DNA from: a virus
Virus record (IMG/VR): IMGVR_UViG_3300037225_000466
Coordinates: 12,845 to 76,844 of that record
Strand: one strand, 5' to 3'
Length of the DNA: 64,000 nucleotides
Position 1 is the first letter of the stretch. Each line of letters begins with the position of its first letter. The notes below the pieces were generated by a model. It was given only the letters and a program-made list of their open reading frames with translations, was not told where the DNA came from and made no database searches. This document shows, piece by piece, positions 5,183 through 48,882 of this stretch. The translations under genes were made by a program, and so were the position numbers.

Positions 5183-5202
5183 ATAAACACCTCAAAAATA
5201 AA

Positions 5203-5370
5203 CGGACTTACGGCGTGAAACAAGCATATAAACATGGGATAGCCAAGTCGATAGGTTGAACCGTAAGTCCGAAATAAATAATATATTTAATTGTTTTCAT
5301 AGATAACCATCCTATTTTTTATACTTGTTTCACGGGTACAAAAATACGAAAAGAAAATTCAGTTTCCTAA
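5203..5370 (-). promoter_or_regulatory. Promoter plus structured leader 1 (uORF 5208-5300, antisense-loop hairpin)
   Basis: TTAGGAAA-N16-TATTTTTG promoter; 11-bp stem 5203-5213/5261-5271; loop 5214-5240 complementary to 5309-5334. Confidence 0.7.
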
Positions 5371-10064: not shown

Positions 10065-11878
10065 AGTATCTCCTTAAATGTATCTATAAGTGTTTGTTTT
10101 GAAAAATTATTGACTATATATTCTTGGAATGACTTTGTTAAAAATGACAATGAATCTGGATTGTTGTACACATTTATAATACTACCAGCAAAATGTTCAG
10201 GGTCATCGTTCCCAGAAACTATCGGCATCCCCTGCCATCCTATATTCGTTGAAATTATCGGTACTCCATAATACATGGCTTCCACCACTTTCCCTTTAAC
10301 TCCCGCACCATACCTCAAAGGCACTATACAGATTCTTGCGTTTTTATAATACTCGGCGAGTTCGGGGTCGGTTACAAAGTGGTCTGGGATAACTATGTTT
10401 TGTGAGTACTTAAAACTTGCTAAAGTTATATCCAAAGGTATATCTGAACCTATGATTGTCAGCTTCATTTCGGGGATTTCTTTTAAAACCAAAGGAAAAA
10501 TCTCATTAATAAACCATAGGATACCGTCTACGTTGGGGGAGTGTTTGAACCCTCCGACAAAAATCAGACCATCACCTAATTGCTCCCTTTTTGGTGGGTC
10601 ATCATAAACATAGGGCTGAATAACCCGACCTTTTTTAACTAAATCAATTTCTTCCTGACTCGGATAAAGAATCTCATCGGCTAATTCAAAGATTTCGGTC
10701 TCTAATTCATAATACTTTATAAAAGTATGGAAAAGATTCGTCTTCTTTTTAATCTCATATTCTTTCCTTGCCCTTAAATAATGTAAGTCATGCCCATAAT
10801 AAAGAATTTTAGCATGGGTTTTATCTTTTAAGAGTTTAGCCCAATTCAAACTTTCAGGTCGACAGCACAAAACATAGTCAAATTTACTTGAATTTTCTAA
10901 AATAAAGTCTTTTCCCTCAATTATTTCGATTCCATTTTGCTCAAGTTGAGAAGTGTAAGGTTCTGGAGTTTCTCCATTCAAAGGAAGGAATTTTATATTA
11001 AGATTCATTTCAATAAATATGTCCAAAAACGCCATTACAGTCTTATCTCCAGCTCCTTTGTCGTATTGAGGGATATAATCTATACACAAAATTGTTTTTT
11101 TGCCACGACTCCTATCTCTTCCGTGGAAAATATCCATGACTCTTGGACTATATTCGGATAAGTCCCATTTTTTTGCAAAGATTTTCTGGTGCTCTGTAAC
11201 TTTAAACTCTTTTTTGCCATCAGCACTCCCTCCGCTTATGTGGACAATCTCACTTAGAGGTTGATAGACTACTTTTAGTCCAATTTTTCTTACTTTAAAG
11301 CAAAAATCCACATCTTCGGTGTATGCAGGATAGTAACGTTCGTCAAATCCGCCACATAAATCCCATGTAGAGCGTTTGAACATCATACAGGCACCGCTGG
11401 CATAGTCCACTTCTTTGAAATAATTAAATCTCGGAGCGTTAGGATCCTCGCCTACTCCATAATTTATCGCACTGCCGTCATTAAAGATAATAGCAACGGC
11501 TTCTACAAGTGTCCCATCAGGATATACTTGCTTACCACCTACCAATCCAATATCGTCAGAATATTCAAATGTTCTTTTAAGCCAGTAAAGCCACTTAGAC
11601 TTAACCATGGTGTCATTATTAAGGAGTACGATATAGTCGTCAGGGTTCATATCTATTGCATTGAGAGTATTATTGCAGTTATTGAGATAACCTTGGTTAA
11701 AAGAATGGATATAGACAGTAATTCGAGGGTCATGTATATTAAAAAATGGTTGTCCTTCGGGCGATGCGTCCTCACTAACAATAATTTTATAGTCTCCTTC
11801 CGTATTTTTAAGAATTGAGTCTATGCAATTTGCAGTAAGAATCCATTTACCATAAGTAGGTATAATGATATATATCAA
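10061..11878 (-). CDS. Fused GT2 + GT4 glycosyltransferase
   Basis: IIIPTY, VSEDAS, LLNNDT, GGFDERY..YTEDVD (GT2); FVGGFKHSPNVDG and PLRYGAGVKGKVVEAM (GT4). Confidence 0.9.
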   Translation of the reverse strand: MIYIIIPTYGKWILTANCIDSILKNTEGDYKIIVSEDASPEGQPFFNIHDPRITVYIHSFNQGYLNNCNNTLNAIDMNPDDYIVLLNNDTMVKSKWLYWLKRTFEYSDDIGLVGGKQVYPDGTLVEAVAIIFNDGSAINYGVGEDPNAPRFNYFKEVDYASGACMMFKRSTWDLCGGFDERYYPAYTEDVDFCFKVRKIGLKVVYQPLSEIVHISGGSADGKKEFKVTEHQKIFAKKWDLSEYSPRVMDIFHGRDRSRGKKTILCIDYIPQYDKGAGDKTVMAFLDIFIEMNLNIKFLPLNGETPEPYTSQLEQNGIEIIEGKDFILENSSKFDYVLCCRPESLNWAKLLKDKTHAKILYYGHDLHYLRARKEYEIKKKTNLFHTFIKYYELETEIFELADEILYPSQEEIDLVKKGRVIQPYVYDDPPKREQLGDGLIFVGGFKHSPNVDGILWFINEIFPLVLKEIPEMKLTIIGSDIPLDITLASFKYSQNIVIPDHFVTDPELAEYYKNARICIVPLRYGAGVKGKVVEAMYYGVPIISTNIGWQGMPIVSGNDDPEHFAGSIINVYNNPDSLSFLTKSFQEYIVNNFSKQTLIDTFKEIL

Positions 11879-12261
11879 AACATTTCTCCAGCTTTTTTCT
11901 GCAAAATCGTTGGGTCTATTTTTAAGGCTCTATTGCTTGCGGGTTCTTTTTTGACTAAGGACCCAGGGTTCAGGAGCTCTTGATGGAGTGTTCCGCCGTC
12001 GAACCAAACACAGCCGACGATCGGGTAAGTCTCAGGCGTTGGTCCGCATAAAGTCTTTACAGTCATTGCAGGACCTCCTGATTTCAGATAAACGATGTCT
12101 CCTATTTCAAAAGTTTCTATAAATTCAATCTCCTTAATTTTCCCGTACTGTATTCTAAAAATTGTGTTGCAGTTATAGCATAAATAAAATTGCATTGCAT
12201 CATTTCTTAGGGGTTGTCCTAAATATTCCGTAGCCTCTGAACCGCATTTTGGACAGGTCAT
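11875..12261 (-). CDS. Zinc ribbon + YodC/DUF2158-like domain protein
   Basis: CPKC...CYNC; FEIGDIVYLKSGGPAMTV...CVWFDG. Confidence 0.7.
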   Translation of the reverse strand: MTCPKCGSEATEYLGQPLRNDAMQFYLCYNCNTIFRIQYGKIKEIEFIETFEIGDIVYLKSGGPAMTVKTLCGPTPETYPIVGCVWFDGGTLHQELLNPGSLVKKEPASNRALKIDPTILQKKAGEMF

Positions 12262-12531
12262 TTATTCCTCCACCACTTTAAATCCTTCACGGATATTAAT
12301 TAATTTGCCTTCCGCCCACTTTTTGACTGTTTCCCTGCACTTCTCAATAAAATAATCGTCGTTACTTTTCTCTTCTAAGGCACGATGGGCATAGATAACA
12401 TATTCACCTTCTCTTGCCTCATAAGGTTTACAGATACAATCTGGAGATAAGGTATGTAAATCCCTTTCCGAAGAAACTTCAAGATGTTTGAATTTCTCAG
12501 GATTTTCCTGCATTGCTTCTTCTTTTGTCAT
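12262..12531 (-). CDS. Hypothetical protein
   Basis: ORF track; H...CxCxP...H motif. Confidence 0.55.
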   Translation of the reverse strand: MTKEEAMQENPEKFKHLEVSSERDLHTLSPDCICKPYEAREGEYVIYAHRALEEKSNDDYFIEKCRETVKKWAEGKLINIREGFKVVEE

Positions 12532-23380: not shown

Positions 23381-23457
23381 AGTATCAGAGTAGTCCGCTA
23401 CAAAGTAGGAAGTTAAGAATAGATTATCGAAGGATAGGCTCTTATTACTCTGATACT
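23381..23457 (+). ncRNA. Candidate structured intergenic RNA (three-way junction)
   Basis: 12-bp perfect stem agtatcagagta/tactctgatact enclosing two hairpins. Confidence 0.45.
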
Positions 23458-27692: not shown

Positions 27693-27869
27693 TTGCATTA
27701 TATTAGAATATTCCGTAATTTTGCAGTGTAACAATTATTAGAAACTAAAGAGAGTATTCAAATGCAATTAAAAATTAATCAGACTGCCTGCAAATCCTGT
27801 CTCAATCGCTCTCTGCGTTGTTTCAATGATTGTTACAACAGGCAGTCTGAATATTTGAGGTGGATATGA
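27693..27869 (+). promoter_or_regulatory. Promoter plus structured leader 2 (uORF 27762-27869)
   Basis: TTGC...TAATTTTG; 12-bp stem 27779-27790/27839-27850; loop 27808-27837 complementary to 27727-27755. Confidence 0.7.
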
Positions 27870-28369
27870 GAACTCATAGAAAATGTGGCACAAAGATTTA
27901 TGTACTCTGGAAATCAATTAAACAAAGATGCTACTGTCCGTCGGCTTCGCCGTATAAATTTTATGGTGGTCGTGGTATAACTATGTATGAAAAATGGATT
28001 CATTCTTTTGAAACATTTTACGAGTTTGTTTCTAAGTTGCCGAATTTTGACGAAAGTCGATTAGGTGCACACGGGTTATCTTTAGATAGAATTGACAATG
28101 AGAGAGGATATTTCCCCGACAACATCCGATGGGTTACAATGTCAATACAATCACGAAATATAAGACTATCAAAAAGAAATACTACTGGCTATATAGGAGT
28201 TTCTATTAATAAAAAATGCCCTATAAGACCATACAAGGCGGCTATCAATCTTAAAGGGTACGCTGCATTGGGTCAATTTAAAACGGCAAAAGAAGCCGCA
28301 ATAGCCAGAGATAAATGTATTATTGATAATAATTTAGAAGGATTTAACTTACAAGTTTTAAAGAGGTAA
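27866..28369 (+). CDS. HNH homing-endonuclease-like protein with AP2 domain
   Basis: WKSIKQRCY, YGGRGI, SLDRIDNERGYFPDNIRW, NTTGYIGV, LGQFKTAKEAAIARD. Confidence 0.85.
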   Translation: MRTHRKCGTKIYVLWKSIKQRCYCPSASPYKFYGGRGITMYEKWIHSFETFYEFVSKLPNFDESRLGAHGLSLDRIDNERGYFPDNIRWVTMSIQSRNIRLSKRNTTGYIGVSINKKCPIRPYKAAINLKGYAALGQFKTAKEAAIARDKCIIDNNLEGFNLQVLKR

Positions 28370-32257: not shown

Positions 32258-32677
32258 ATGAATATTAAGGTTAGAATCTGGGATAGTCATAAAAAATGTT
32301 TTTTATTAAGAGAAAAATATTTTATATACGGGTTGTCTTTAGACGGAGAATTGATAAAATGCCATGCTTCTGGTGATGAAGCGGGATTTGACTATTATGA
32401 CAACCCCAACATTGAAATTATGCAATGCACGGGTCTCGAAAGCCTCAACGGCAAAGGTAAAGAAATTTATAGACTGGACATACTCTCAAATAGTAGAAAG
32501 ACTGCCAATTTTATCGTCGACTGGGACGACCGCAAGGCTATGTTCAACGGATTCTACCTTAATGGCGACGGGACTTGGGACGATGCTTATGAAGGCAATT
32601 TATCAATGTTACAAGACCTTGAAGTAATTGGAAATTTTTTCGAAAACCCCGAACTTTTAAAGGATTCAGATGACTGA
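32258..32677 (+). CDS. YopX family protein
   Basis: IKVRIWD...MQCTGL...KEIY..DI...EVIGNFFENPELL. Confidence 0.85.
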   Translation: MNIKVRIWDSHKKCFLLREKYFIYGLSLDGELIKCHASGDEAGFDYYDNPNIEIMQCTGLESLNGKGKEIYRLDILSNSRKTANFIVDWDDRKAMFNGFYLNGDGTWDDAYEGNLSMLQDLEVIGNFFENPELLKDSDD

Positions 32678-32921: not shown

Positions 32922-33634
32922 ATTTCTTAGAAGAAAACATCGACAAGGTCTTATGTATGGACGCAGTTGAATGTATGAGGCTAATCCCTGATAAAACGGT
33001 AGATTTGATTTGTACGGATCCTCCGTATAGTATAAGTGATAAGGGAGGTAGTAAAAAGGTAAAAAATTACTCCATATTTAGAAACGATTGGGACAAAGAC
33101 TTCAATCCTCTTCCTTTCCTCGACGAGGCTTTTCGAATCATCAAGGACAACGGGCAGATAATTGTTATGTGCAATCGGAGTCTTTTGGGGACTTATCTCA
33201 GGTACAGAAAGGAACAGGACATTCTCCATTGGTATCATCCGACCAGAGTCCCAGCTTTTAGCAAAGTTTTTGCACCAACTATTGAATATGCAGTTTGGTG
33301 GACGAATCCTGATTATACGTTTAATAAAAAATATGCCAAAACTAATGTGTTTGATTATTTGAGACCGTACCAACTTAATCAGAAATATCCTCATCCAAGT
33401 CAGAAACCTACTCATTTAATTAAAAAGTGGATTCAGGTTTTAACGAATCCAGGGGATATGGTTATAGATTTTTTTGTCGGAAGTGGTACGACTGCTATTG
33501 CGGCTTTAGAGATGGACAGGCATTTTATAGTCAATGATATTAGTCCAGAGTATGCAGAAATGACAAAAAAAAGAGTTGCTTTACATCATAAAAAAATTTA
33601 CTATTTCAGCCCCTGTAAAACCAGTGCTTTGTAA
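32918..33634 (+). CDS. Orphan beta-class amino DNA methyltransferase
   Basis: TDPPY; HPSQKP; DFFVGSGTT. Confidence 0.92.
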   Translation: MNFLEENIDKVLCMDAVECMRLIPDKTVDLICTDPPYSISDKGGSKKVKNYSIFRNDWDKDFNPLPFLDEAFRIIKDNGQIIVMCNRSLLGTYLRYRKEQDILHWYHPTRVPAFSKVFAPTIEYAVWWTNPDYTFNKKYAKTNVFDYLRPYQLNQKYPHPSQKPTHLIKKWIQVLTNPGDMVIDFFVGSGTTAIAALEMDRHFIVNDISPEYAEMTKKRVALHHKKIYYFSPCKTSAL

Positions 33635-34083
33635 ATTATCAGCATAGTGAGAAAAGCCGTTCTGCTTGTGAAGTGGGAGCCGTGCTCTTTGTAGAGGTCG
33701 TTAAGTTGGACAAGTGCTTTGTAAGTAATATAAACATCTATAATTTCGGAAGCGGGGAGGCGATGATTGTTTTTCACGAATCCTTCATCTTTAGTCCAGT
33801 TGATTCCAGAACCGAGCCCCGTACTAAGTATTACATATTGGACAATTTCAGGCAGTTCGATTTCCATGCCATAATGCTTTAACCACCAATCGTGGATAAT
33901 GGCAATGTATTTGTTTGCACCTGGGTTAACCTGTACTTGTTTTGTCCTAAGAGTATCTGAATCTCTTTGAATATCTTTTTTCCATTTATTCCACCGTCCG
34001 TCCTTCTTTGGTTCTTGTTCTTTTGGGGGGCTCTTCTTTTTTGCTACTTTATATTCCTTGCCCTTATAAATACAGACTATCAT
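33601..34083 (-). CDS. Hypothetical protein
   Basis: ORF track. Confidence 0.6.
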   Translation of the reverse strand: MIVCIYKGKEYKVAKKKSPPKEQEPKKDGRWNKWKKDIQRDSDTLRTKQVQVNPGANKYIAIIHDWWLKHYGMEIELPEIVQYVILSTGLGSGINWTKDEGFVKNNHRLPASEIIDVYITYKALVQLNDLYKEHGSHFTSRTAFLTMLIIYKALVLQGLK

Positions 34084-34742
34084 TTCAACCCTTTGATTTT
34101 GAAAAAAGCGTATTCAGTGTTGACGGCGTAGTTCTGGTAAATCTCGGCTACTCTTTTATAATCTACTGGCATTTGTAATTCTCGGCAACTGTCACATATC
34201 GGGAAAAGCAGACCATCAACTTTTTCAAGCTCGAAACCGTCCGCGGGTGCGTCGAAAGAGCCGCAGCAGCAGCATTGATAATATTTTAAAAAGTTGTGGT
34301 CGAATATTGAGGAACTATAAGGCATGTGTCTTGCTATGAAATCACGAATTTCCGATAGTCCGTCCGTCTCTTTCCTCACGATTAAGTTCCTGACTTGTGC
34401 CTTAAGGTCGCCCTGTGGGTTTTGCTGGGCTTTCATTAAGTATTCGGCGACTGAATGAGCTTCGAATCTCCTAATGTCGTCCATAAGGAATTCCAACTCA
34501 ACCTGTGAAATGGTTTGTAATTGATCGTATTCTTCGCCTGTGATTTTTAGATATTCGCAAATTTCTGGCTTACTCATTTTGAGTGTTGGGAGCATACGGG
34601 AAAGATAGTATTTCTGCGTGATTACAAGTTTCTCCTCTGCGAGAATTTGCTCGTGAAACTCTGTGATTTTGTCGTCAGATTTGTGGATTATCACAAGACT
34701 ACCTTCATCAATCGTACACTTTTGTCGCTTGAGCCGCCGCAA
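34080..34742 (-). CDS. Hypothetical zinc-binding protein
   Basis: CCCCG...PICDSC. Confidence 0.6.
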   Translation of the reverse strand: MRRLKRQKCTIDEGSLVIIHKSDDKITEFHEQILAEEKLVITQKYYLSRMLPTLKMSKPEICEYLKITGEEYDQLQTISQVELEFLMDDIRRFEAHSVAEYLMKAQQNPQGDLKAQVRNLIVRKETDGLSEIRDFIARHMPYSSSIFDHNFLKYYQCCCCGSFDAPADGFELEKVDGLLFPICDSCRELQMPVDYKRVAEIYQNYAVNTEYAFFKIKGLK

Positions 34743-34865
34743 ATGCTTTTAATCCATTTTTTTTTAGACTTATAAACCATCACTCTCCCGCAATGATTGC
34801 ACTTATAAAGATTTACATCTTTACCTATTGTGCCTACTCGCATTGGAAATTTTTCTTTCTTCATA

Positions 34866-35132
34866 TCAATCCCTCATTCTTGGTTTGAATTGGTCAGTAA
34901 ATTTTATAGGTCTCGTTATCCATATTGGTTCTTTTTTAGGTTTTGGTCTATATTGAATATCAAAATAACCTTTTTCTCCCTTATATCTCAATCCTATCCT
35001 ATCGTATCCTATTTTTTGCTCAAGGTTGTGAGAATTTCTTACAGCATTTATATCCCTAAACGGAATCATATTTGTTGTTTTTAATTCTTCTTCTAAATTT
35101 ACTTTTTCGATTTCTGTCTCTTCTGGTGTCAT
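34866..35132 (-). CDS. Hypothetical protein
   Basis: ORF track. Confidence 0.5.
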   Translation of the reverse strand: MTPEETEIEKVNLEEELKTTNMIPFRDINAVRNSHNLEQKIGYDRIGLRYKGEKGYFDIQYRPKPKKEPIWITRPIKFTDQFKPRMRD

Positions 35133-35133
35133 T

Positions 35134-35538
35134 TTAATTAAACTCGTGGATTCTATTTAACTTAGCATTTTTAAGTAATTTTTCCTTTAAAGTAATATCA
35201 TTCAAATATACGCACTTGCCTTCAAGATATAGTTTTGCTATATACTCTTTTAATCTAAATTTTGGTCTTGGATAAGGAAGTTTTGCAAAAGTTAAATACA
35301 TCCTTATCATATCATTATGTTTATGTCCGTGTTTACTTTTTATAATGTGATTTTTTATTAGACAATTTATGATTTTTAACATTATATAGTTATCATATAT
35401 AGTCTGTTTGTAACTTATCGGTTCTTCTTTTGGAAGAAGCTCTGACTTTTCTTTTCTTTGCATTAGCCTACGATTTCTCATTTTGTAGACCTCTATTTTT
35501 GCAAAAACTTGTTTTTTTTCATTTTTACTTAATTGCAT
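35134..35538 (-). CDS. Basic hypothetical protein
   Basis: ORF track; GCAGAGGA RBS. Confidence 0.55.
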   Translation of the reverse strand: MQLSKNEKKQVFAKIEVYKMRNRRLMQRKEKSELLPKEEPISYKQTIYDNYIMLKIINCLIKNHIIKSKHGHKHNDMIRMYLTFAKLPYPRPKFRLKEYIAKLYLEGKCVYLNDITLKEKLLKNAKLNRIHEFN

Positions 35539-35751
35539 AACATTTTCCTCTGCATCTTATATTAAGTAGCCGTTACCAAATACCAATAGATAGAATATCC
35601 TCTGCTAATATCTTGCAACATAGAATCTTAGTATTTTTCTGATTATGCAGTCTACCTGTCGTCATGTTGGGACGGAGCAGGATTCCAATTCTATGCCGTC
35701 TATCCTTGATTTACTTTTCATTTAAGGTTTCCCCTCGGCTGTTGAAATAAG

Positions 35752-35928
35752 TTATAAAGACCGTATATAAAAAAATTCCGACGGAGTTGTATAGCAGAGG
35801 ACCGTCGGAATTTTATCGGTAAAATTTCTTTTACCTACAAATTTATTTTTTATGTCAAAATTTTCTTTCATTTTCCTCTGCTTTATTTTTCCTATACGAA
35901 ATTAATACATTTTTATTTTATTTCCTAA
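35752..35928 (-). promoter_or_regulatory. Promoter plus structured leader 3 (uORF 35752-35871, terminator with antisense loop)
   Basis: TTAGGAAA-N16-TAATTTCG; 13-bp stem 35772-35784/35802-35814 with U-tract; loop pairs with 35874-35882. Confidence 0.7.
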
Positions 35929-35952
35929 TGAAAATTTTTATAATCCGTACAA

Positions 35953-38900
35953 TTACTTATTTTCCAAAAAATACTGCAAATTAATATTTGGCTTGTTCGA
36001 CTTCCTATATCTTACCTGCACCCCGCTCTCAGACTGCTTTTCGTAAGCGGACTGGACTGCCATTGCTTCATATTCTCTTCTCACCGCACTTTTTGCTCCC
36101 TCAATTACCTTCTTAAATTCAACGTCCGAGGTCCCTGGCGTTTGGTAATTTTCGCTGGGGTGGATTTTGGAATATAATTCCTGCCTGAATGTCGGGTCGT
36201 CTAATTTATCATCAATCTCCTTGATTTTTGCTTTGTATTCATCTTTGGTCTCTTTCCATGCGTCGATAATATCGTTCTTTAATTTATCAGCATTGAGGAT
36301 TGGCTTTCCGCCCTCTTGTTCGTTTGCGAGAAGTTCTCTCTCGGCTGAGTCCTTATTCCTCTTTACTCCGTCTACTATAATTTCTACCCCTCCAACTCCG
36401 AGAGTCTTCTTGATGTACCGTGCCTGTAAGGCTGGAGTGTTTGTGGGATTTTTGTCCTCTCTCATTAACTCGGCTTCCCATTTTTGGTGCAGTGGCTTCC
36501 CAAGCCCGACATCCTGCAAAGCGTTGTACCATTTATAGTCTCCTGTCGGAGCACCTTCCTTATCGAGTTTTTTGCCTCCCGAAAGATTAAAGTATGCTTC
36601 AATTCCTCTCTGTGCTACTGGCGGGACGATCCCTCCCTGTGTCAAAGCTCCCCACAGTTTCTGAGAAACACTCTTATTGCCGTCGGAAACTTCATTGATA
36701 ATTTTTATAATAGAACTTAACATAAAAGGATTCCCGATTTGCCCTAAAACATCATGTAGGCTGAAATCCCTGTCCATTAACATTGAGAGTACATTGTATT
36801 CAGTTGCCTGCCTTAAGCTCTTTGCAAGGGTTCTGTCGATTCCGACTTTCTCTAAGCCGTTTTCTATATGTCTCCAGATTGCCTCGGTCCCTGTTTCTTT
36901 AGTCACACTCGGTTCATCTTTATTGTCTCCTCCTATTTGTCTCAGACCGTCATAAAGAATCCCTAATGCTGGCAAAGCCCTAACTCCGTGCATGAACATT
37001 CTTAGAAAAGACCTTGTTGTGAAATCTACAATGCCTCCAGCTTTTAACGGGTCAGCATGAAGAGCTTTCTGTGCCTCAATTAAGTAATGCCTGAAATTAT
37101 TAGCCGTCGGTAAAAAGAATTTGGTTATAGGAGCTAAGAGTTTTTGGTTTCTTATACCCTGTACGATTTTAGTTGTGTTTGAAGGTGTGAAACTTCCTTG
37201 TGCTTCGGCAATCCCAGAAATAACCTTATTCTCAATTTCTCTAATATACTGTTCCTCTGTGAGCCCGCTTCCTTCAAATGGATACTTAGCCATTAAAGCC
37301 TTCCGCATGACTATCGCTCCGACCTCTCTGCCGTTTCTCCATGCCTGCTTGGGCAACCAGAGCATTGCGTTCTGTACACCTCTTTGCAGGTTTGGGGTGT
37401 GCTCGCTTCTGAATAAGTTATCCGCTATTGTTTGACTCTGCATAACTCTACTGTCAATTTCTTTCTCTAATGAGTTTTTAACATTAATATCAAATGTTGG
37501 AGCCTTTAATTTTCCGAGCATTGATTTTATTTGTGCGGGTACGCCTTCCCAAATCGGAACGAATGTCGGGAGACCGTTGGACTTTAATAAATCAATAGTA
37601 TTCATTAGCACACCTTCAAGATGCCTTGCGTAGGTATTAGCATTGAAAGTTAAAGCCCCTGCACCTATCCAGTTAGAACCGCCTTGTACCCATCTGCCAG
37701 GGTCGTATACGCTACCGTCAGCCGTGGTAATTGTCCCCTGCCCTATTAATTGCCCAAAAGGGTTTACTCTTGGGGTTTGCTGGGCTTGCCTTGCCTGCTC
37801 TTCGAGCCACCTGTTATGCCTGTTTATTCCAGTCTCTTTATTGTTGATGGTCTCCAATAACTGCTTCTGTGCGGTTTTTGAAGTTGCATTTCTTTGTAAC
37901 TTATCGTACTGCCTTAAATTCTCGTGCTCCATGTTATTGTAATGAGCAACCACTGCCTTCTTGGGGCTCATTTCAGTATGAGTAAAGGCATAGTTTGGAG
38001 TGGGCTGTTCTATTGACTGTCTGCTTGAAAGCCTGTGGATTAAATTCGTGAACCTGTCGCTGTCGCCACTTTTTATAATCTCATTGACTTTGTCTATTTG
38101 CTCAGGTGTCATTCCTTCAAGTTTTTTAATGGTCGGTTCGTCGAGCTCAGACTTCCCGCCTCTGCTTACATATCCTAAAAGAACATTAGCATTTCTTTCG
38201 TTCTGGTTTAAACGATAAGGCATTTCCGTAGGGACGAAAGATTTGACTTCGACTTCGACCTTTCTCGGTTTCCCAGTTGCTGGGTCAATAGGAGTATCAA
38301 CTATTTCGCCTCGGTGGTTGTACATTTTATCAACTGTACCCTTGGCGTTGATTAACTTATCTTCGTTTCGGCTTCCCTCTGTTGGTTCAAATCCCAGTTT
38401 CTTTAATTCGGCTACATCGTTTTTTAGCATTTCTTTTCTGGTTTTATAGCCTTTGTGAACCCTTATTAAAGATTCTTCGGGTTTAACTCCAGCCTGCCTT
38501 ATATCCATTTGCCACTGATTTCCGCCACTGTTTAATTGAGGTATATAGTGGTCTGCTTCGCTGGTTTTCTGGAATCTGTCGTAATCAGCAAGATAACTAA
38601 CATCCTTTTTTAACTGAGCAATTTCTGATTTATAAGGACCAGCTTTGTCGGCAATCTGAGTCTTGATTTCTACATTTGCTTTCTTTAACTCCGCCATCCT
38701 TATTTTAATCTTAACGGGGCTCGCTTCGTTGTCGGTTGCAAGACGAATCTTTAACTTCTGCAACTCAGCATTATTCTTCTTGAAAGTTTTATTCTGGTCT
38801 GAGACCCACTTTTCTCTCTGAGACTTTACTTTCTCTAAAGCGGGCTTTGTCTCAGTGTCGATTTTCTTCTGGAGTTCGTCTCGACTAAGTAGTTTTTCTC

Positions 38901-41900
38901 CGAAAATAGAGTTATCAATTTGGAAGCGAGTGTTCTCGTTGTGGAGATTCCTCAATGCCTGATAACCGCTATACGCTTTCTCTGGGTCGAGCCCTAAATG
39001 AGCAAGCTCTGCCTTGATATTCGCTTCGGAAGTTATCCCTGCTTTCACCGCCGCCAAACCTTCTATTGCATCTTTATAGCGAAGCGGAGAAAGATTGCCC
39101 GCCTTCCTTTGGTTTGCAAGGCTTCTCTCTGCGTTTTTGACTTCGTTTATTGCGTGGAAGATATTTTGGTTAGCCTGTATGATTTTGCCAAAATCCTCGT
39201 GGCTGTAATTTTTGCTTAATTCTCCGTATAATTCTGCGGTTTTTGCATTGTGTATCCCAAAGGTTTTTTCTGGATAAACAAAAGTGTTCCAAGAAAATTC
39301 GCTTTCTTTTCGATTCAAAAGGGTCTTGAAATTATCAGGATTATAATGATTATTTTTATTAAAATTTGAGAGCATGGAATATTTTGAATTTGTCCTATCA
39401 GGCTGTTGCTCTTGCATCCCTTTGTTAACTTCACCTGCTGGAGTATTTTTGAAATACTCGTCTAAAGCACTGAGCTTTTTGCCTGTTTCGTGGGGCTTAG
39501 TCCCTCTGATTGATTTATAGACCTGTTTTATCCCTTCGGGGATATTGGCAGGGAAGGAATAAAGTAAACCCGAAAATGAGCCTTCGTTATTTTTTGCTAT
39601 CTCTGAATTTTTTGTAGCTTTTTCTACGCCCAAAGCCTCGGAAGGTATATCTAATTTATTATTTTTATATAAATCATCCATCATTTTATATAATTCTGGA
39701 TGAGCTTTAAACACCTCTTTCGCTATATTCAAAACGTTTTTATGCACTATGTTGGGATTTTTTACTATATGATACATCGATATAGCATTAGCCAGTCTTT
39801 CTTCTGCCAATTTATATATATTAGCTTTCGGTGCGTTTATATCCAAACTAATATCATTATATCCCTTTGGGAATACTTTTTGCAAGTACTTTATCCAGTC
39901 TTTCTTTATGTTTACATAGAGTCCATTTATCTTCCCACTTGAAATTTTATGTGAAATAGCATGCCCAAATTCGTGCATTAAAACATCAGCATTAGGCGAG
40001 CTTACTATGTTGCCATCATAGTGGGGCCATTCATTGTTAGAGATTTTTATATTACCTACAAGACCCCCATATTTATCCAAACTTGGAATTATTTTTCCTA
40101 TATCGGTACCCTTTATATTTTGCCCTACCTTTAATCCTGTCGGTCTATCGGGTTTATTAGCCGCAAGTCTTGCTCGTTTTTCTTCTAATGCCTGCCCTTC
40201 TCGAATCTTCATTTCTTTTTTATATCGCTTTAACTCTTCGTCAGACATCGGCTCACCTACCAAAATAGGCATATCTGGTTCACTTTTTTGTTTTAATGAT
40301 TTTTCCTCTTTGGTGGTACCAATAGCTACTTCACTTTTTTTTTCAGTTTTATCTATTATTCTCCCCGTTTCAGGCGGGTTCGCCGAACCTTTTTTAAGTT
40401 TTTCTTCTGTATAAGGTTTGATTAAACCCTTGCCAACTTTGTTGTTAAAGAAATTAGTTCTATCCCTTAAACTAACAACCCCATCTTTATCGATTGTGAG
40501 ATACACATCTTTCGGGAGTAAGTTAGTCTGGATTACCGAAGCCCCGTCCCCTCTGGGTCGAATTGCATTTTGTATTTGCTCAATATCCTTTTGCAAATCT
40601 GGGTCAATTCTAACTTTATTCGCAATTATATTGGGATTCTCTTCTATTGCCTTTTTGTCAATATAAGTTTCTTTGGCTGAATCAAAAGGTTTTGTAGCCG
40701 TTTCGAGTTTTCTGGATTCGTTCTTTGCTAATAATTGAGGAGACTCTACTTTTGGAGGTTCGGTTTTTTGAGTCGCCACTTCTTGTTTAGAAGGCTTGCC
40801 TTCAATCGCACTCTCTTGTTCAAAAGATTTCTTATTCTCTGATGGAGGGTACACTTTCCTCCCTTGTTCATCTCTTTGGTATATATCTGTTGCTTCAGCC
40901 TGTGGCTCAGAAACGGCTTCTGCCTCTGGTTTGACCGTTTCTATTGGCTTTGGAGTTTCGACGGCTCCTACGGGCTGCAATTCCTTTAAATCTGGACTTG
41001 CCTCAATCATGGTTTTTATCTTCTGCATTTTTTGTGCGGAAGTCATGCCTTGCGTTTTTCCTAATAATGGTGATCGGGTTCCATCGATGTCTTTGTGATT
41101 CTGGAGACGCCTGATTACGGTTTCTGGGGTCTCATTGGTCATAAGGTTTGAATAACGGGTGTTGACCGCTGCCTGCCTTAGAGCCTTTTCGTCGGGAGTC
41201 GTTTCTCCTTTTAAGTCTTTGGTGTTTATATCACTGATAGTTTCATTCACATTCTCATCTGGCATTACAGGTTTGTTGTTCATCCAGTCAGAAACAAATT
41301 TGCCGAATTCTTCGGGAGTGTCTGGAAGCCTTTGATTGATTTTTTGAAACTGAGCTTCCATATATTTATGACCTTCGGGATTTGAAGTGTCTAAATAAGG
41401 CTTAATTTTATTCCCGTTTGCGTCTTTAGTTATCTTTTCTCCGTTTGGAGCGTCAAAATAATTTTTTATACCGTATTTTTCCACAACTTCTGGGTGGTCA
41501 GCTTTTACATTATTAAGGTCAGCTTTTGAAATATTATCAGAAACATCAAAAGCTACATTTTTCTTCTCCTCTGGAGTGTAGGAATCAACAGGTCTGCCTT
41601 TTTCTGTATAACTCTCATTCGGGACGTCGGAAATTGGTGCTGAAAGTGCGGGAGTTGTTGGCGGTGCTTCATAACTTGGATTCGGAACTTCCTGCCCCGC
41701 TTTTGCCTTTTGTGCGACCATCATGTTCAAACGGTCAATTGCATCAGGGTCGTTTTCTATGACTTTTTTGTAGCCTCGGAAGAAATTGTCCATTTTCTTA
41801 ATTTTGCTTGCAGGCATTTCAGATATGTTAGTATAAGGCTTCCCGCTCTTGTAAGAATTTTGGAAATCCGTATAAAGATTATCTTTGGCAGTTTGCCCAG

Positions 41901-48304: not shown

Positions 48305-48882
48305 AACTCCATTAAAGAATAACTTAAACCTACAAAAACTCCGACACAATTGCCCCAACCGCTTCCTACCAATCCGCCTCCTGCTCCCAGACCAATAGTT
48401 ATATGCCACTTCTTATGGATTATCATAGTGTCGACTCTTGATAAAGAAAGGATAGTATCAGGTCTGAATCGAATTACCGTACTCAGGAGGTTTTCTGGAA
48501 AGGCGTAAGAGCTTCTGATACTATCCCCTCGTGCAATCGTGTCAATCTCACTCGTGAATGGCTTTGTCAGAATATAGTTCTGAACCTCGCCAAATTTTAT
48601 TATTTTTCTTTCTAAAGATTTGTTACTATTAAAAATGTCCGCCGTATAATCCAAAGTGTCGCAAGGCGTTATTATCGTGTCATGCAATAGTTTGGTCCTG
48701 AAAGTCACCTGCCCCTCACCCTCAATTATCAATGGTGGCTGAGTAGTGATGATCCTCAACGTGTCTGTCTTGCCTTTCACATACTCCACAGTTCCCTTGG
48801 AATGGAATACTGTCAGCATCAGGGCGACACCTAATGCTATCCCGATACCTATTGAAAGTGCGTAATATTTTACATTACTCAT
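48301..48882 (-). CDS. Putative spanin-like membrane protein
   Basis: N-terminal TM; DT-repeat body; C-terminal amphipathic beta strands; lysis cassette. Confidence 0.5.
   Translation of the reverse strand: MSNVKYYALSIGIGIALGVALMLTVFHSKGTVEYVKGKTDTLRIITTQPPLIIEGEGQVTFRTKLLHDTIITPCDTLDYTADIFNSNKSLERKIIKFGEVQNYILTKPFTSEIDTIARGDSIRSSYAFPENLLSTVIRFRPDTILSLSRVDTMIIHKKWHITIGLGAGGGLVGSGWGNCVGVFVGLSYSLMEL

Follow-up and report, generated by a model that had tools for sequence, protein, structure and literature searches.

Organization of the locus

This study concerns a 64,000-nucleotide stretch of viral DNA, referred to here as the window, which comprises bases 12845-76844 of IMG/VR record IMGVR_UViG_3300037225_000466, a single virus contig of 76,844 base pairs (bp) with 38.8% G+C. 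On its minus strand, a run of structural genes of about 28 kb, including collagen-like fibres and open reading frames (ORFs) of 1,871 and 2,422 amino acids (aa), ends at 35953 and is followed by a gap of 414 bp, the second largest in the genome, and then by an operon of five orphan ORFs. The gap contains leader 3 (35541-35928; Table 1), in which the loop of a terminator-like hairpin carries a short stretch, a', that is complementary to three sites: box 1, which precedes the hairpin and overlaps the start of a small upstream ORF (uORF), box 2, and box 3, which lies at the ribosome-binding site (RBS) of ORF134, the 134-aa first gene of the operon. We tentatively interpret leader 3 as a cis-regulatory leader RNA organized around this one antisense loop, in which a helix formed by box 1 and the loop either competes with the terminator or reshapes it, thereby setting the level of read-through; we give this interpretation slightly less than an even chance of being correct.

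Table 1 Features of leader 3, leaders of similar layout and the downstream operon. Positions are those of the window, except for the leaders of L001-L004.
Feature	Position	Strand	Description
Promoter-like element	35897-35928	-	TTAGGAAA (35928-35921), 16 nt, TAATTTCG (35904-35897)
Box 1	35869-35882	-	AGCAGAGGA (35882-35874), within the 13-mer GCAGAGGAAAATG (35881-35869); Shine-Dalgarno sequence and start of uORF
uORF	35752-35871	-	39 codons; crosses the terminator-like hairpin; stop 14 nt past the U run
Internal TAnnTTTG box	35838-35845	-	Perfect match, TAAATTTG, inside the leader
Small hairpin	35818-35835	-	7 bp, GGUAAAA/UUUUACC, directly ahead of the terminator-like hairpin; in minimum free energy and centroid folds
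Intrinsic-terminator-like hairpin	35769-35814	-	13-bp stem, 17-nt loop, 7 U
Anti-box a'	35792-35801	-	UCCUCUGCUA, 5'-most 10 nt of the loop; complement of boxes 1, 2 and 3
Box 2	35598-35607	-	TAGCAGAGGA; 10/10 to the loop, best match; duplex -17.5 kcal/mol
Box 3	35541-35553	-	GCAGAGGA (35553-35546), second copy of the 13-mer (35553-35541); 8/8 to the loop; duplex -15.2 kcal/mol
Downstream operon	33601-35538	-	Five orphan ORFs: 134, 88, 57, 220 and 160 aa
Leader 1	5185-5370	-	5' segment complementary to the loop of a big hairpin
Leader 2	27700-27870	+	5' segment complementary to the loop of a big hairpin
Replication leaders of four distant phages	L001:3586-3719, L002:2122-2251, L003:3586-3715, L004:3021-3150		Alignments A1/A2

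The hairpin is terminator-like, and its loop is atypically large. A preliminary description of this DNA had reported a 13-bp terminator with a U tract, and both were recovered: the arms (35814-35802 and 35784-35772) are complementary at 13 of 13 positions, and the U run corresponds to seven T (T35775-T35769), four of which lie within the 3' arm. The G+C-rich core of the stem comprises 9 bp (UUCCGACGG), which A/U pairs extend to 13 bp, and the U run follows directly, which is a hallmark of terminators. No other perfect stem in the 76.8-kb genome is as long. The energy of the hairpin is -17.2 kcal/mol, and the fold of leader 3 is better than that of all but one of 200 shuffled sequences (z = -3.4). 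The loop (35801-35785) exceeds the 3-8 nucleotides (nt) that are usual in terminators, and a simple consensus scanner accepting loops of 3-8 nt did not list the hairpin because of its 8-nt limit. On re-reading the sequence, the hairpin, the boxes and the repeated 13-mer were all located where the preliminary description had placed them. Its account of the loop was correct with regard to the complementarity of UCCUCUGCUA to three sites (9/9, 10/10 and 8/8); the loop itself, however, comprises 17 nt rather than 10, and UCCUCUGCUA is its 5' part.

With regard to the promoter-like element, TTAGGAAA followed after 16 nt by TAnnTTYG is found at leader 3 and at leader 1 (5370) only, in agreement with the shared spacing noted previously, and in none of 300 genome shuffles, the pattern having been defined after both occurrences had been seen. 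The element can alternatively be read as TTAG-N20-TAnnTTyG, which is near the Bacteroidetes -33/-7 form. If it is used as a promoter, as its sequence suggests, the RNA of leader 3 would start near 35890-35886 (about 35888). The internal TAAATTTG box has no TTTG 19-21 nt upstream; it could act as an alternative start, and the RNA made from it, of about 65 nt, would lack box 1. Neither a TAnnTTTG box nor a sigma-70-like match was found in the interval from the hairpin to ORF134, and a second promoter there was therefore dropped; as a result, the five genes probably rely on transcription that reads through the hairpin, originating either at the leader promoter or in the late operon.

The boxes differ in their relation to start codons. 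The GAGG core of box 1 lies just 3 nt ahead of the ATG of the uORF (35871), a spacing that is short for initiation; the uORF, for which no family match was found, is thus a putative coding frame. Given that the uORF crosses the hairpin and stops past the U run, an RNA ended at the terminator would lack its stop codon. Box 2 cannot be an RBS, as no start codon follows it. The GAGG of box 3, well spaced at 8 nt from the ATG at 35538, constitutes the Shine-Dalgarno (SD) sequence of ORF134, and the ATG within the 13-mer at this site opens a frame of four codons only. Box 3 is located within the 27-nt loop of a weak, AU-rich 8-bp hairpin (35568-35561 with 35533-35526). Measured from a', the distance is 72 nt to box 1, on the upstream side, and 184 and 240 nt to boxes 2 and 3, on the downstream side, with about 160 nt of unremarkable sequence between the U run of the hairpin and box 2.

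Complementarity of the loop to the boxes

Box 1 and the loop are complementary over 9 contiguous nt, and at 11 of 12 positions overall, with a duplex energy of -16.6 kcal/mol. The octamer GCAGAGGA occurs six times in the genome, both strands included, against an expectation of about 1.2-1.4. Four of the six copies fall within 336 bp (35546-35881), and the other two are located in coding sequence. The sole inverted copy of the box lies in the loop of the strongest hairpin of the genome. When the hairpin was held fixed and its flanks were dinucleotide-shuffled 20,000 times, a site being defined as at least 8 nt complementary to the loop, none of the shuffled sequences contained three sites, 15 contained two and 895 contained one. 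The preliminary description had raised the possibility that the octamer is merely a common RBS variant. This was ruled out: GCAGAGG is found ahead of one of 118 ORF starts only, that of ORF134, the genes mostly having sites of the AAGGAG/AGGAGG type. The observation at leader 3 was thus confirmed as statistically solid.

These counts bear on the possibility that the hairpin is a plain terminator of the structural operon, the boxes being functionless leftovers of small duplications of an RBS and start codon, and the loop match a by-product. The hairpin is indeed the first terminator after the 28-kb structural operon and its 2,422-aa gene, and there is no evidence of selection, since the locus and both flanking genes are orphan. 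Furthermore, CU-rich loops that resemble an anti-SD sequence easily match purine-rich RBSs, and the loop of leader 3 reaches -15 to -17 kcal/mol with three other RBSs when G-U pairs are allowed. Nevertheless, three sites were not obtained in any of the shuffles, box 2 is the best match of all without being an RBS, and a loop of 17 nt is unusual for a terminator. The flanks of the boxes are unrelated, which argues against segmental duplication, and the layout in which a loop matches the 5' part of its RNA recurs twice more in this genome, as described below. We therefore regard a plain terminator as improbable.

The three other RBS regions are those of 12262-12531 (-), 11875-12261 (-) and 32258-32677 (+), with duplex energies of -16.6, -15.7 and -14.9 kcal/mol, respectively. 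The pairing is partly G-U; the mean over the 118 gene starts is -6.6 kcal/mol, with a standard deviation (sd) of 2.9. These matches could represent additional targets in trans, or the generic anti-SD likeness of a CU-rich loop.

Alternatively, the boxes may be protein sites, either the RNA operator of a translational repressor or a DNA operator, in which case the copy in the loop would be a competitor or incidental. The 13-mer spans the SD sequence, an A-rich spacer and the AUG, as do RegA- or CsrA-type sites, and it contains GGA. The identity of boxes 1 and 3 over 13 nt is 5 nt longer than their match to the loop, boxes 2 and 3 are spaced by 52 bp, or about five helical turns, and the 220-aa ORF of the downstream operon contains a stretch resembling a helix-turn-helix (HTH) and a Cys4 cluster, with a weak hint of HTH proteins from a protein atlas. 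Against this, a single inverted copy lies exactly in the 17-nt loop, a placement expected by chance about once in 40 within the 414-bp gap, the similarity among the boxes is confined to 8-13 nt, and the PHROG, Pfam and atlas searches yielded no candidate binder. As two leaders of the same layout differ greatly in sequence, pairing between RNA segments fits better than a site for one protein, and we consider protein sites quite improbable.

Predicted competing folds of the leader

Folding predictions were nested and knot-free, and pseudoknots are invisible to such folding. In the nascent RNA, from about 35886 to the end of the loop segment, the minimum free energy (MFE) structure already pairs box 1 with the loop, so that the box1:loop helix is available to the RNA before the terminator's 3' arm has been transcribed. 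In the full leader of 122 nt, the fold with the hairpin reaches about -25.7 (-25.5) kcal/mol, versus -23.1 kcal/mol for the fold with the box1:loop helix, whereas the MFE structure of a 401-nt RNA has the box1:loop helix instead of the hairpin. The probability of being unpaired is 0.77 for box 1 in the read-through RNA and 0.92 for a' when the hairpin is formed. Both helices might be accommodated sterically in an H-type pseudoknot, given that 0 nt separate the 5' arm from a' and that 8 nt of the loop remain.

Leaders of similar layout

Two other leaders of the genome, leaders 1 and 2, exhibit the same layout as leader 3, despite their use of quite different sequences. In both, a 5' segment adjoins the start of a uORF, a stem of 11-12 bp closes a loop of 47-48 nt that carries the complement of this segment, and the uORF enters or crosses the stem. 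The duplex between the loop and the upstream segment is about 4.5-6 sd beyond that of shuffled loops in leaders 1, 2 and 3, and none of 60 shuffles was as good in any of the three. Among seven other large hairpins, six were not beyond shuffles, and the hairpin at 1742-1813 was weakly so in one orientation (2 of 60). For each of the three leaders, folding of the nascent RNA predicts that the long-range helix arises first, and the long-range and hairpin folds are within about 2-5 kcal/mol of each other (-34.0 and -28.9 kcal/mol, respectively, for leader 1; -28.4 and -30.6 kcal/mol for leader 2).

Two hairpins with a perfect stem of 12 bp and a loop of 53 nt, at 23381-23457 and 48450-48526, were rejected as further leaders, because the complementarity of their loops to upstream sequence was not beyond shuffles. 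They have a 9-mer arm word in common, TAGTATCAG, and nothing else in them aligns. Scanning the genome for duplexes with the long loops of leaders 1 and 2 was also abandoned as non-discriminating, many windows scoring similarly through extended weak pairing.

A comparable layout was found outside this genome. Four IMG/VR phages (L001-L004) have the same primase/helicase at 36-39% identity, and each carries a leader at the corresponding position, upstream of a small ORF and a gene of about 240 aa, which are followed by the primase/helicase. These leaders exhibit a conserved TTTG-N20-TAATTTTG promoter. The loop of a 7-bp hairpin, 10 nt in length (AGGUAGAAGG and variants), pairs with a stretch inside the 50-nt loop of a second hairpin, of 10 bp, after which come a U run and an ATG without SD sequence. 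In the long-range helix, five of ten pairs are compensatory among the four sequences, both sides having changed, and none of 500 shuffles matched this. The large loop has one partner only, in cis. This replication leader is apparently uncatalogued.

A covariance model (R1) built from alignment A2 of these leaders gave a single hit on the window, which was leader 3 (35849-35765; 19 bits, E about 0.33 on a rough calibration); leader 1 reached 12 bits and leader 2 gave nothing. The relationship of leader 3 to L001-L004 is accordingly one of shared architecture and not of shown homology. Leaders 1 and 2 and the leaders of L001-L004 resemble leader 3 in having a Bacteroidetes-type promoter, a purine-rich and SD-like segment near the 5' end, and a hairpin of 10-13 bp with a U run, whose large loop contains the pyrimidine-rich stretch with which this segment pairs. 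They differ from it in that their hairpin lies just ahead of the first gene, and in that their loops comprise 47-50 nt, with one partner, compared with 17 nt in leader 3. In leader 3 alone, a' occupies the 5' part of the loop, 230 nt are left ahead of the gene, and two extra boxes lie downstream.

Searches for relatives and transcripts

Leader 3 and its flanking genes appear to be isolated in the collections searched. A blastn search with 35000-36300 against 50,697 phage records gave no match, and scans of IMG/VR with ORF134, with the hairpin and with the C-terminus of the 2,422-aa protein returned nothing. In a search of 5.8 billion proteins, ORF134 and residues 1800-2422 of the 2,422-aa protein matched only themselves, while the clusters to which ORF134 and the 2,422-aa protein belong point to a second, near-identical contig of 76,667 bp. 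An exhaustive HMMER search with the last 1,200 residues of the same protein retrieved the protein itself and one weak match (E = 8.5e-5), and five phages with the same primase/helicase all lack it. When metagenomes were scanned for the stem, loops of 12-22 nt of any sequence being allowed, four unrelated chance hairpins were detected, without boxes. At the gathering score, Rfam identified only a tRNA in the window, and its C4 family gave no hit at E up to 10 over 35400-36000.

With regard to transcripts, one peat metatranscriptome from 2018 contained four short contigs of the phage at 99% identity or above (34359-34602, 38338-38488, 38699-38804 and 40209-40371), which could be RNA or carried-over DNA. 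The first of them lies inside the 220-aa gene of the downstream operon. Two further metatranscriptome runs yielded nothing usable. The RNA runs that hold pieces of the phage are labelled as peat metagenome.

Other functions for the locus were also considered. A replication origin or pac site was rejected by reasoning, the boxes being too short and dispersed and the terminase-like genes far away, and a nut or put site was rejected as no boxA/boxB-like elements were seen by eye.

A possible RNA switch acting in cis

In the mechanism that we propose, use of the promoter, termination, base pairing in vivo, the sign of the effect and action in cis are all predictions. An RNA starting at the leader-1-type promoter near 35888, or running in from the structural operon, would carry box 1 first. 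The 5' arm of the terminator would follow about 72 nt later, with the exact complement of the box directly after it, and during synthesis box 1 would pair with this loop segment before the 3' arm of the terminator exists. The box1:loop fold would then compete with the terminator, or knot onto it as an H-type pseudoknot. As the two folds compete and their energies lie within about 2.5 kcal/mol of each other, read-through of the polymerase into the five genes would depend on box 1 being free. Occupation of box 1, either by a ribosome loading on the uORF or by the loop of another copy of the leader RNA, would release the loop. On the read-through RNA, the hairpin loop would be able to move to box 2 or to box 3, and boxes 1 and 2 would then act as competing decoys. 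Since box 3 is the SD sequence of ORF134, the loop could also hold down translation of this gene, in cis or from the short terminated RNA.

The assignment of the shared interaction to cis follows from leaders 1 and 2 and the co-varying leaders of L001-L004, in all of which the loop has a single partner, a 5' segment of the same RNA. Support for leader 3 is made up of internal statistics and of analogy, and several observations weigh against the proposed mechanism. No covariation is available for leader 3 itself, because no relative was found in any collection searched, and homology to the co-varying family is not demonstrated, the hit of the covariance model being weak. The promoter is a motif match only, with both of its boxes off consensus. 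No metatranscriptome contig extends over leader 3, which says nothing either way about the leader RNA. The identity of boxes 1 and 3 beyond the loop match is not explained by pairing with the loop. From the hairpin to ORF134, the intervening 220 nt show no more structure than shuffled sequences (z = +0.3). Finally, if the hairpin and the box1:loop helix coexist as a pseudoknot, there would be no antiterminator.

The preliminary description had suggested that a short terminated RNA silences the downstream operon in trans. The anatomy on which it relied fits: the loop is antisense to targets on both its upstream and its downstream side, including the RBS of the first gene. By analogy, silencing in trans of the P4 CI or P1 C4 kind is possible; in our view, however, it is neither the sole reading nor the likeliest. 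The antisense RNA could be the terminated RNA of about 120 nt, the 65-nt RNA from TAAATTTG or the 3' end of the late structural mRNA. Its exposed loop would bind box 1 on nascent RNA, favouring termination, and boxes 2 and 3 on RNA that has escaped, blocking the RBS of ORF134. An antisense stretch presented in a loop and flanked by targets, one of which is an RBS, matches the layout of P4 CI with seqA/seqC and of c4 (PMC4825925, PMC12197685), and terminated leaders that act in trans have precedents in IsrK (PMC4825925) and rnTrpL (PMC6614838). Three boxes for one loop would be sensible if the loop RNA is in excess, box 2, as the best match and not an RBS, looks like a pure RNA target, and the position of box 3 within a hairpin loop provides the geometry of a kissing interaction. 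Moreover, the terminated form would accumulate, since the hairpin also ends the 28-kb late operon. On the other hand, terminated RNA from the upstream promoter carries box 1, which is predicted to mask the loop intramolecularly, and the loop partner of the other leaders of this layout is in cis only. No such RNA was observed, as the metatranscriptome contigs do not reach the leader, there is no match to the Rfam C4 family, and just 8 bp would form at the RBS. We consider action in trans somewhat unlikely.

Comparison with known antisense systems

In its layout, leader 3 resembles P4 CI, P1 c4 and IsrK, and it lies outside their Rfam family. In the immunity system of P4, CI is an antisense stretch located in the leader of the operon that it controls, with sites on both sides (seqA, seqB and seqC), and it causes premature termination in the leader, as summarized in PMC4825925. 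Both systems have an antisense stretch between upstream and downstream complementary sites on the same transcript, from which the regulator itself derives. CI is cut from an untranslated transcript and is grouped with IsrK-like RNAs (PMC4825925), whereas the end of the leader 3 RNA would come from an intrinsic terminator and not from processing. The phage carrying leader 3 shows no sign of being temperate or a satellite, and one of the targets of the leader 3 loop is an RBS.

In P1, upstream copies of the target of the antisense RNA c4 also exist. The c4 RNA of P1/P7 (Citron & Schuster 1990) comprises 77 nt, and short stretches presented in its loops bind around an RBS of the same operon and block translation, as summarized in PMC12197685. 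Whereas c4 uses two loop segments, a' and b', leader 3 has a single segment of 8-10 nt. Furthermore, c4 is released by processing and serves in immunity by repressing an antirepressor, whereas leader 3 has five orphan genes as its cargo. Leader 3 does not match the covariance model of the Rfam C4 family, which comprises c4, CI and IsrK-like RNAs, and this covariance search revealed no similarity in structure or sequence. It does share with C4-type RNAs a downstream target over the RBS of the first gene, namely box 3, and the location of the antisense stretch between an upstream site (at 72 nt) and downstream sites (at 184 and 240 nt).

Two systems in which a leader yields an RNA that acts in trans were also compared. 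These are IsrK of the Gifsy-1 prophage (PMC4825925) and the small RNA rnTrpL, which is derived from an attenuator (PMC6614838). In this type of system, a single promoter drives both a short RNA ended at the terminator and a longer mRNA produced by read-through. The short RNA base-pairs with mRNA in trans, and the leader contains a small ORF. IsrK activates translation of the long form, whereas the loop of leader 3 would mask the RBS. Control of rnTrpL is exerted by the Trp codons of a leader peptide that stops before the terminator, whereas the uORF of leader 3 crosses it. As this uORF passes the terminator and has no evident sensor codons (no run of one codon), leader 3 is not an attenuator of the trp type.

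To our knowledge, RNA-only switches in which a leader regulates its own operon occur in very few phages (P4, P1/P7 and Gifsy-1 IsrK), all of them enterobacterial. A wider reading is that three operons of the present genome, for replication, for HNH, exonuclease and SSB, and for the five orphans, are under one undescribed leader class, defined by pairing of the RNA's 5' end with the loop of the terminator-like hairpin, and that leader 3 extends this class to a self-contained, P4-like RNA circuit. Feedback in trans, exerted by the terminated leader RNA or by the late mRNA through its 3' end, would force termination at box 1 and switch off translation at boxes 2 and 3, thus providing a timing or immunity switch without protein in a lytic phage that probably infects Bacteroidota. 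We consider this wider reading clearly unlikely. If leader 3 is a real RNA switch, whichever its mode of action, the logic of the enterobacterial systems would have arisen independently, without homology to C4, in an uncultured soil phage with Bacteroidetes-type promoters, whose genome has three leaders of similar construction. The system would be compact, with one loop and three boxes in about 350 nt, and suited to studying how one antisense loop is divided among a partner in antitermination, a decoy and an RBS. Annotators would also be cautioned that phage terminators with large loops can be regulators. As all of the controlled genes are orphans, the switch offers a route to learning when they are needed.

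The downstream genes and expression signals

The five orphan ORFs are presumed to be the cargo under the control of leader 3. Their operon meets plus-strand genes, which end at 33634, head-on. Searches of PHROG and Pfam gave no family match for any of the five, and the ESM atlas was uninformative, with a weak hint of HTH proteins. The 220-aa orphan (34080-34742, minus strand) exhibits an HTH-like stretch around KPEICEYLKITGEEY and a C-terminal CCCC...CDSC cluster (Cys4). The 57-aa orphan (34691-34864, minus strand) exhibits a CxxC motif resembling that of a zinc ribbon, with weak Pfam hints (E 0.01-0.04). Judging from these motifs, both may be small nucleic-acid-binding proteins among the genes presumed to be regulated.

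Throughout the genome, promoter-like elements of the Bacteroidetes -33/-7 type (TAnnTTTG, kept in relatives) are found together with strong AAGGAG/AGGAGG SD sites, which are present at normal spacing ahead of most genes. As Bacteroidota make little use of SD pairing, this combination of promoters and SD sites is an odd one.

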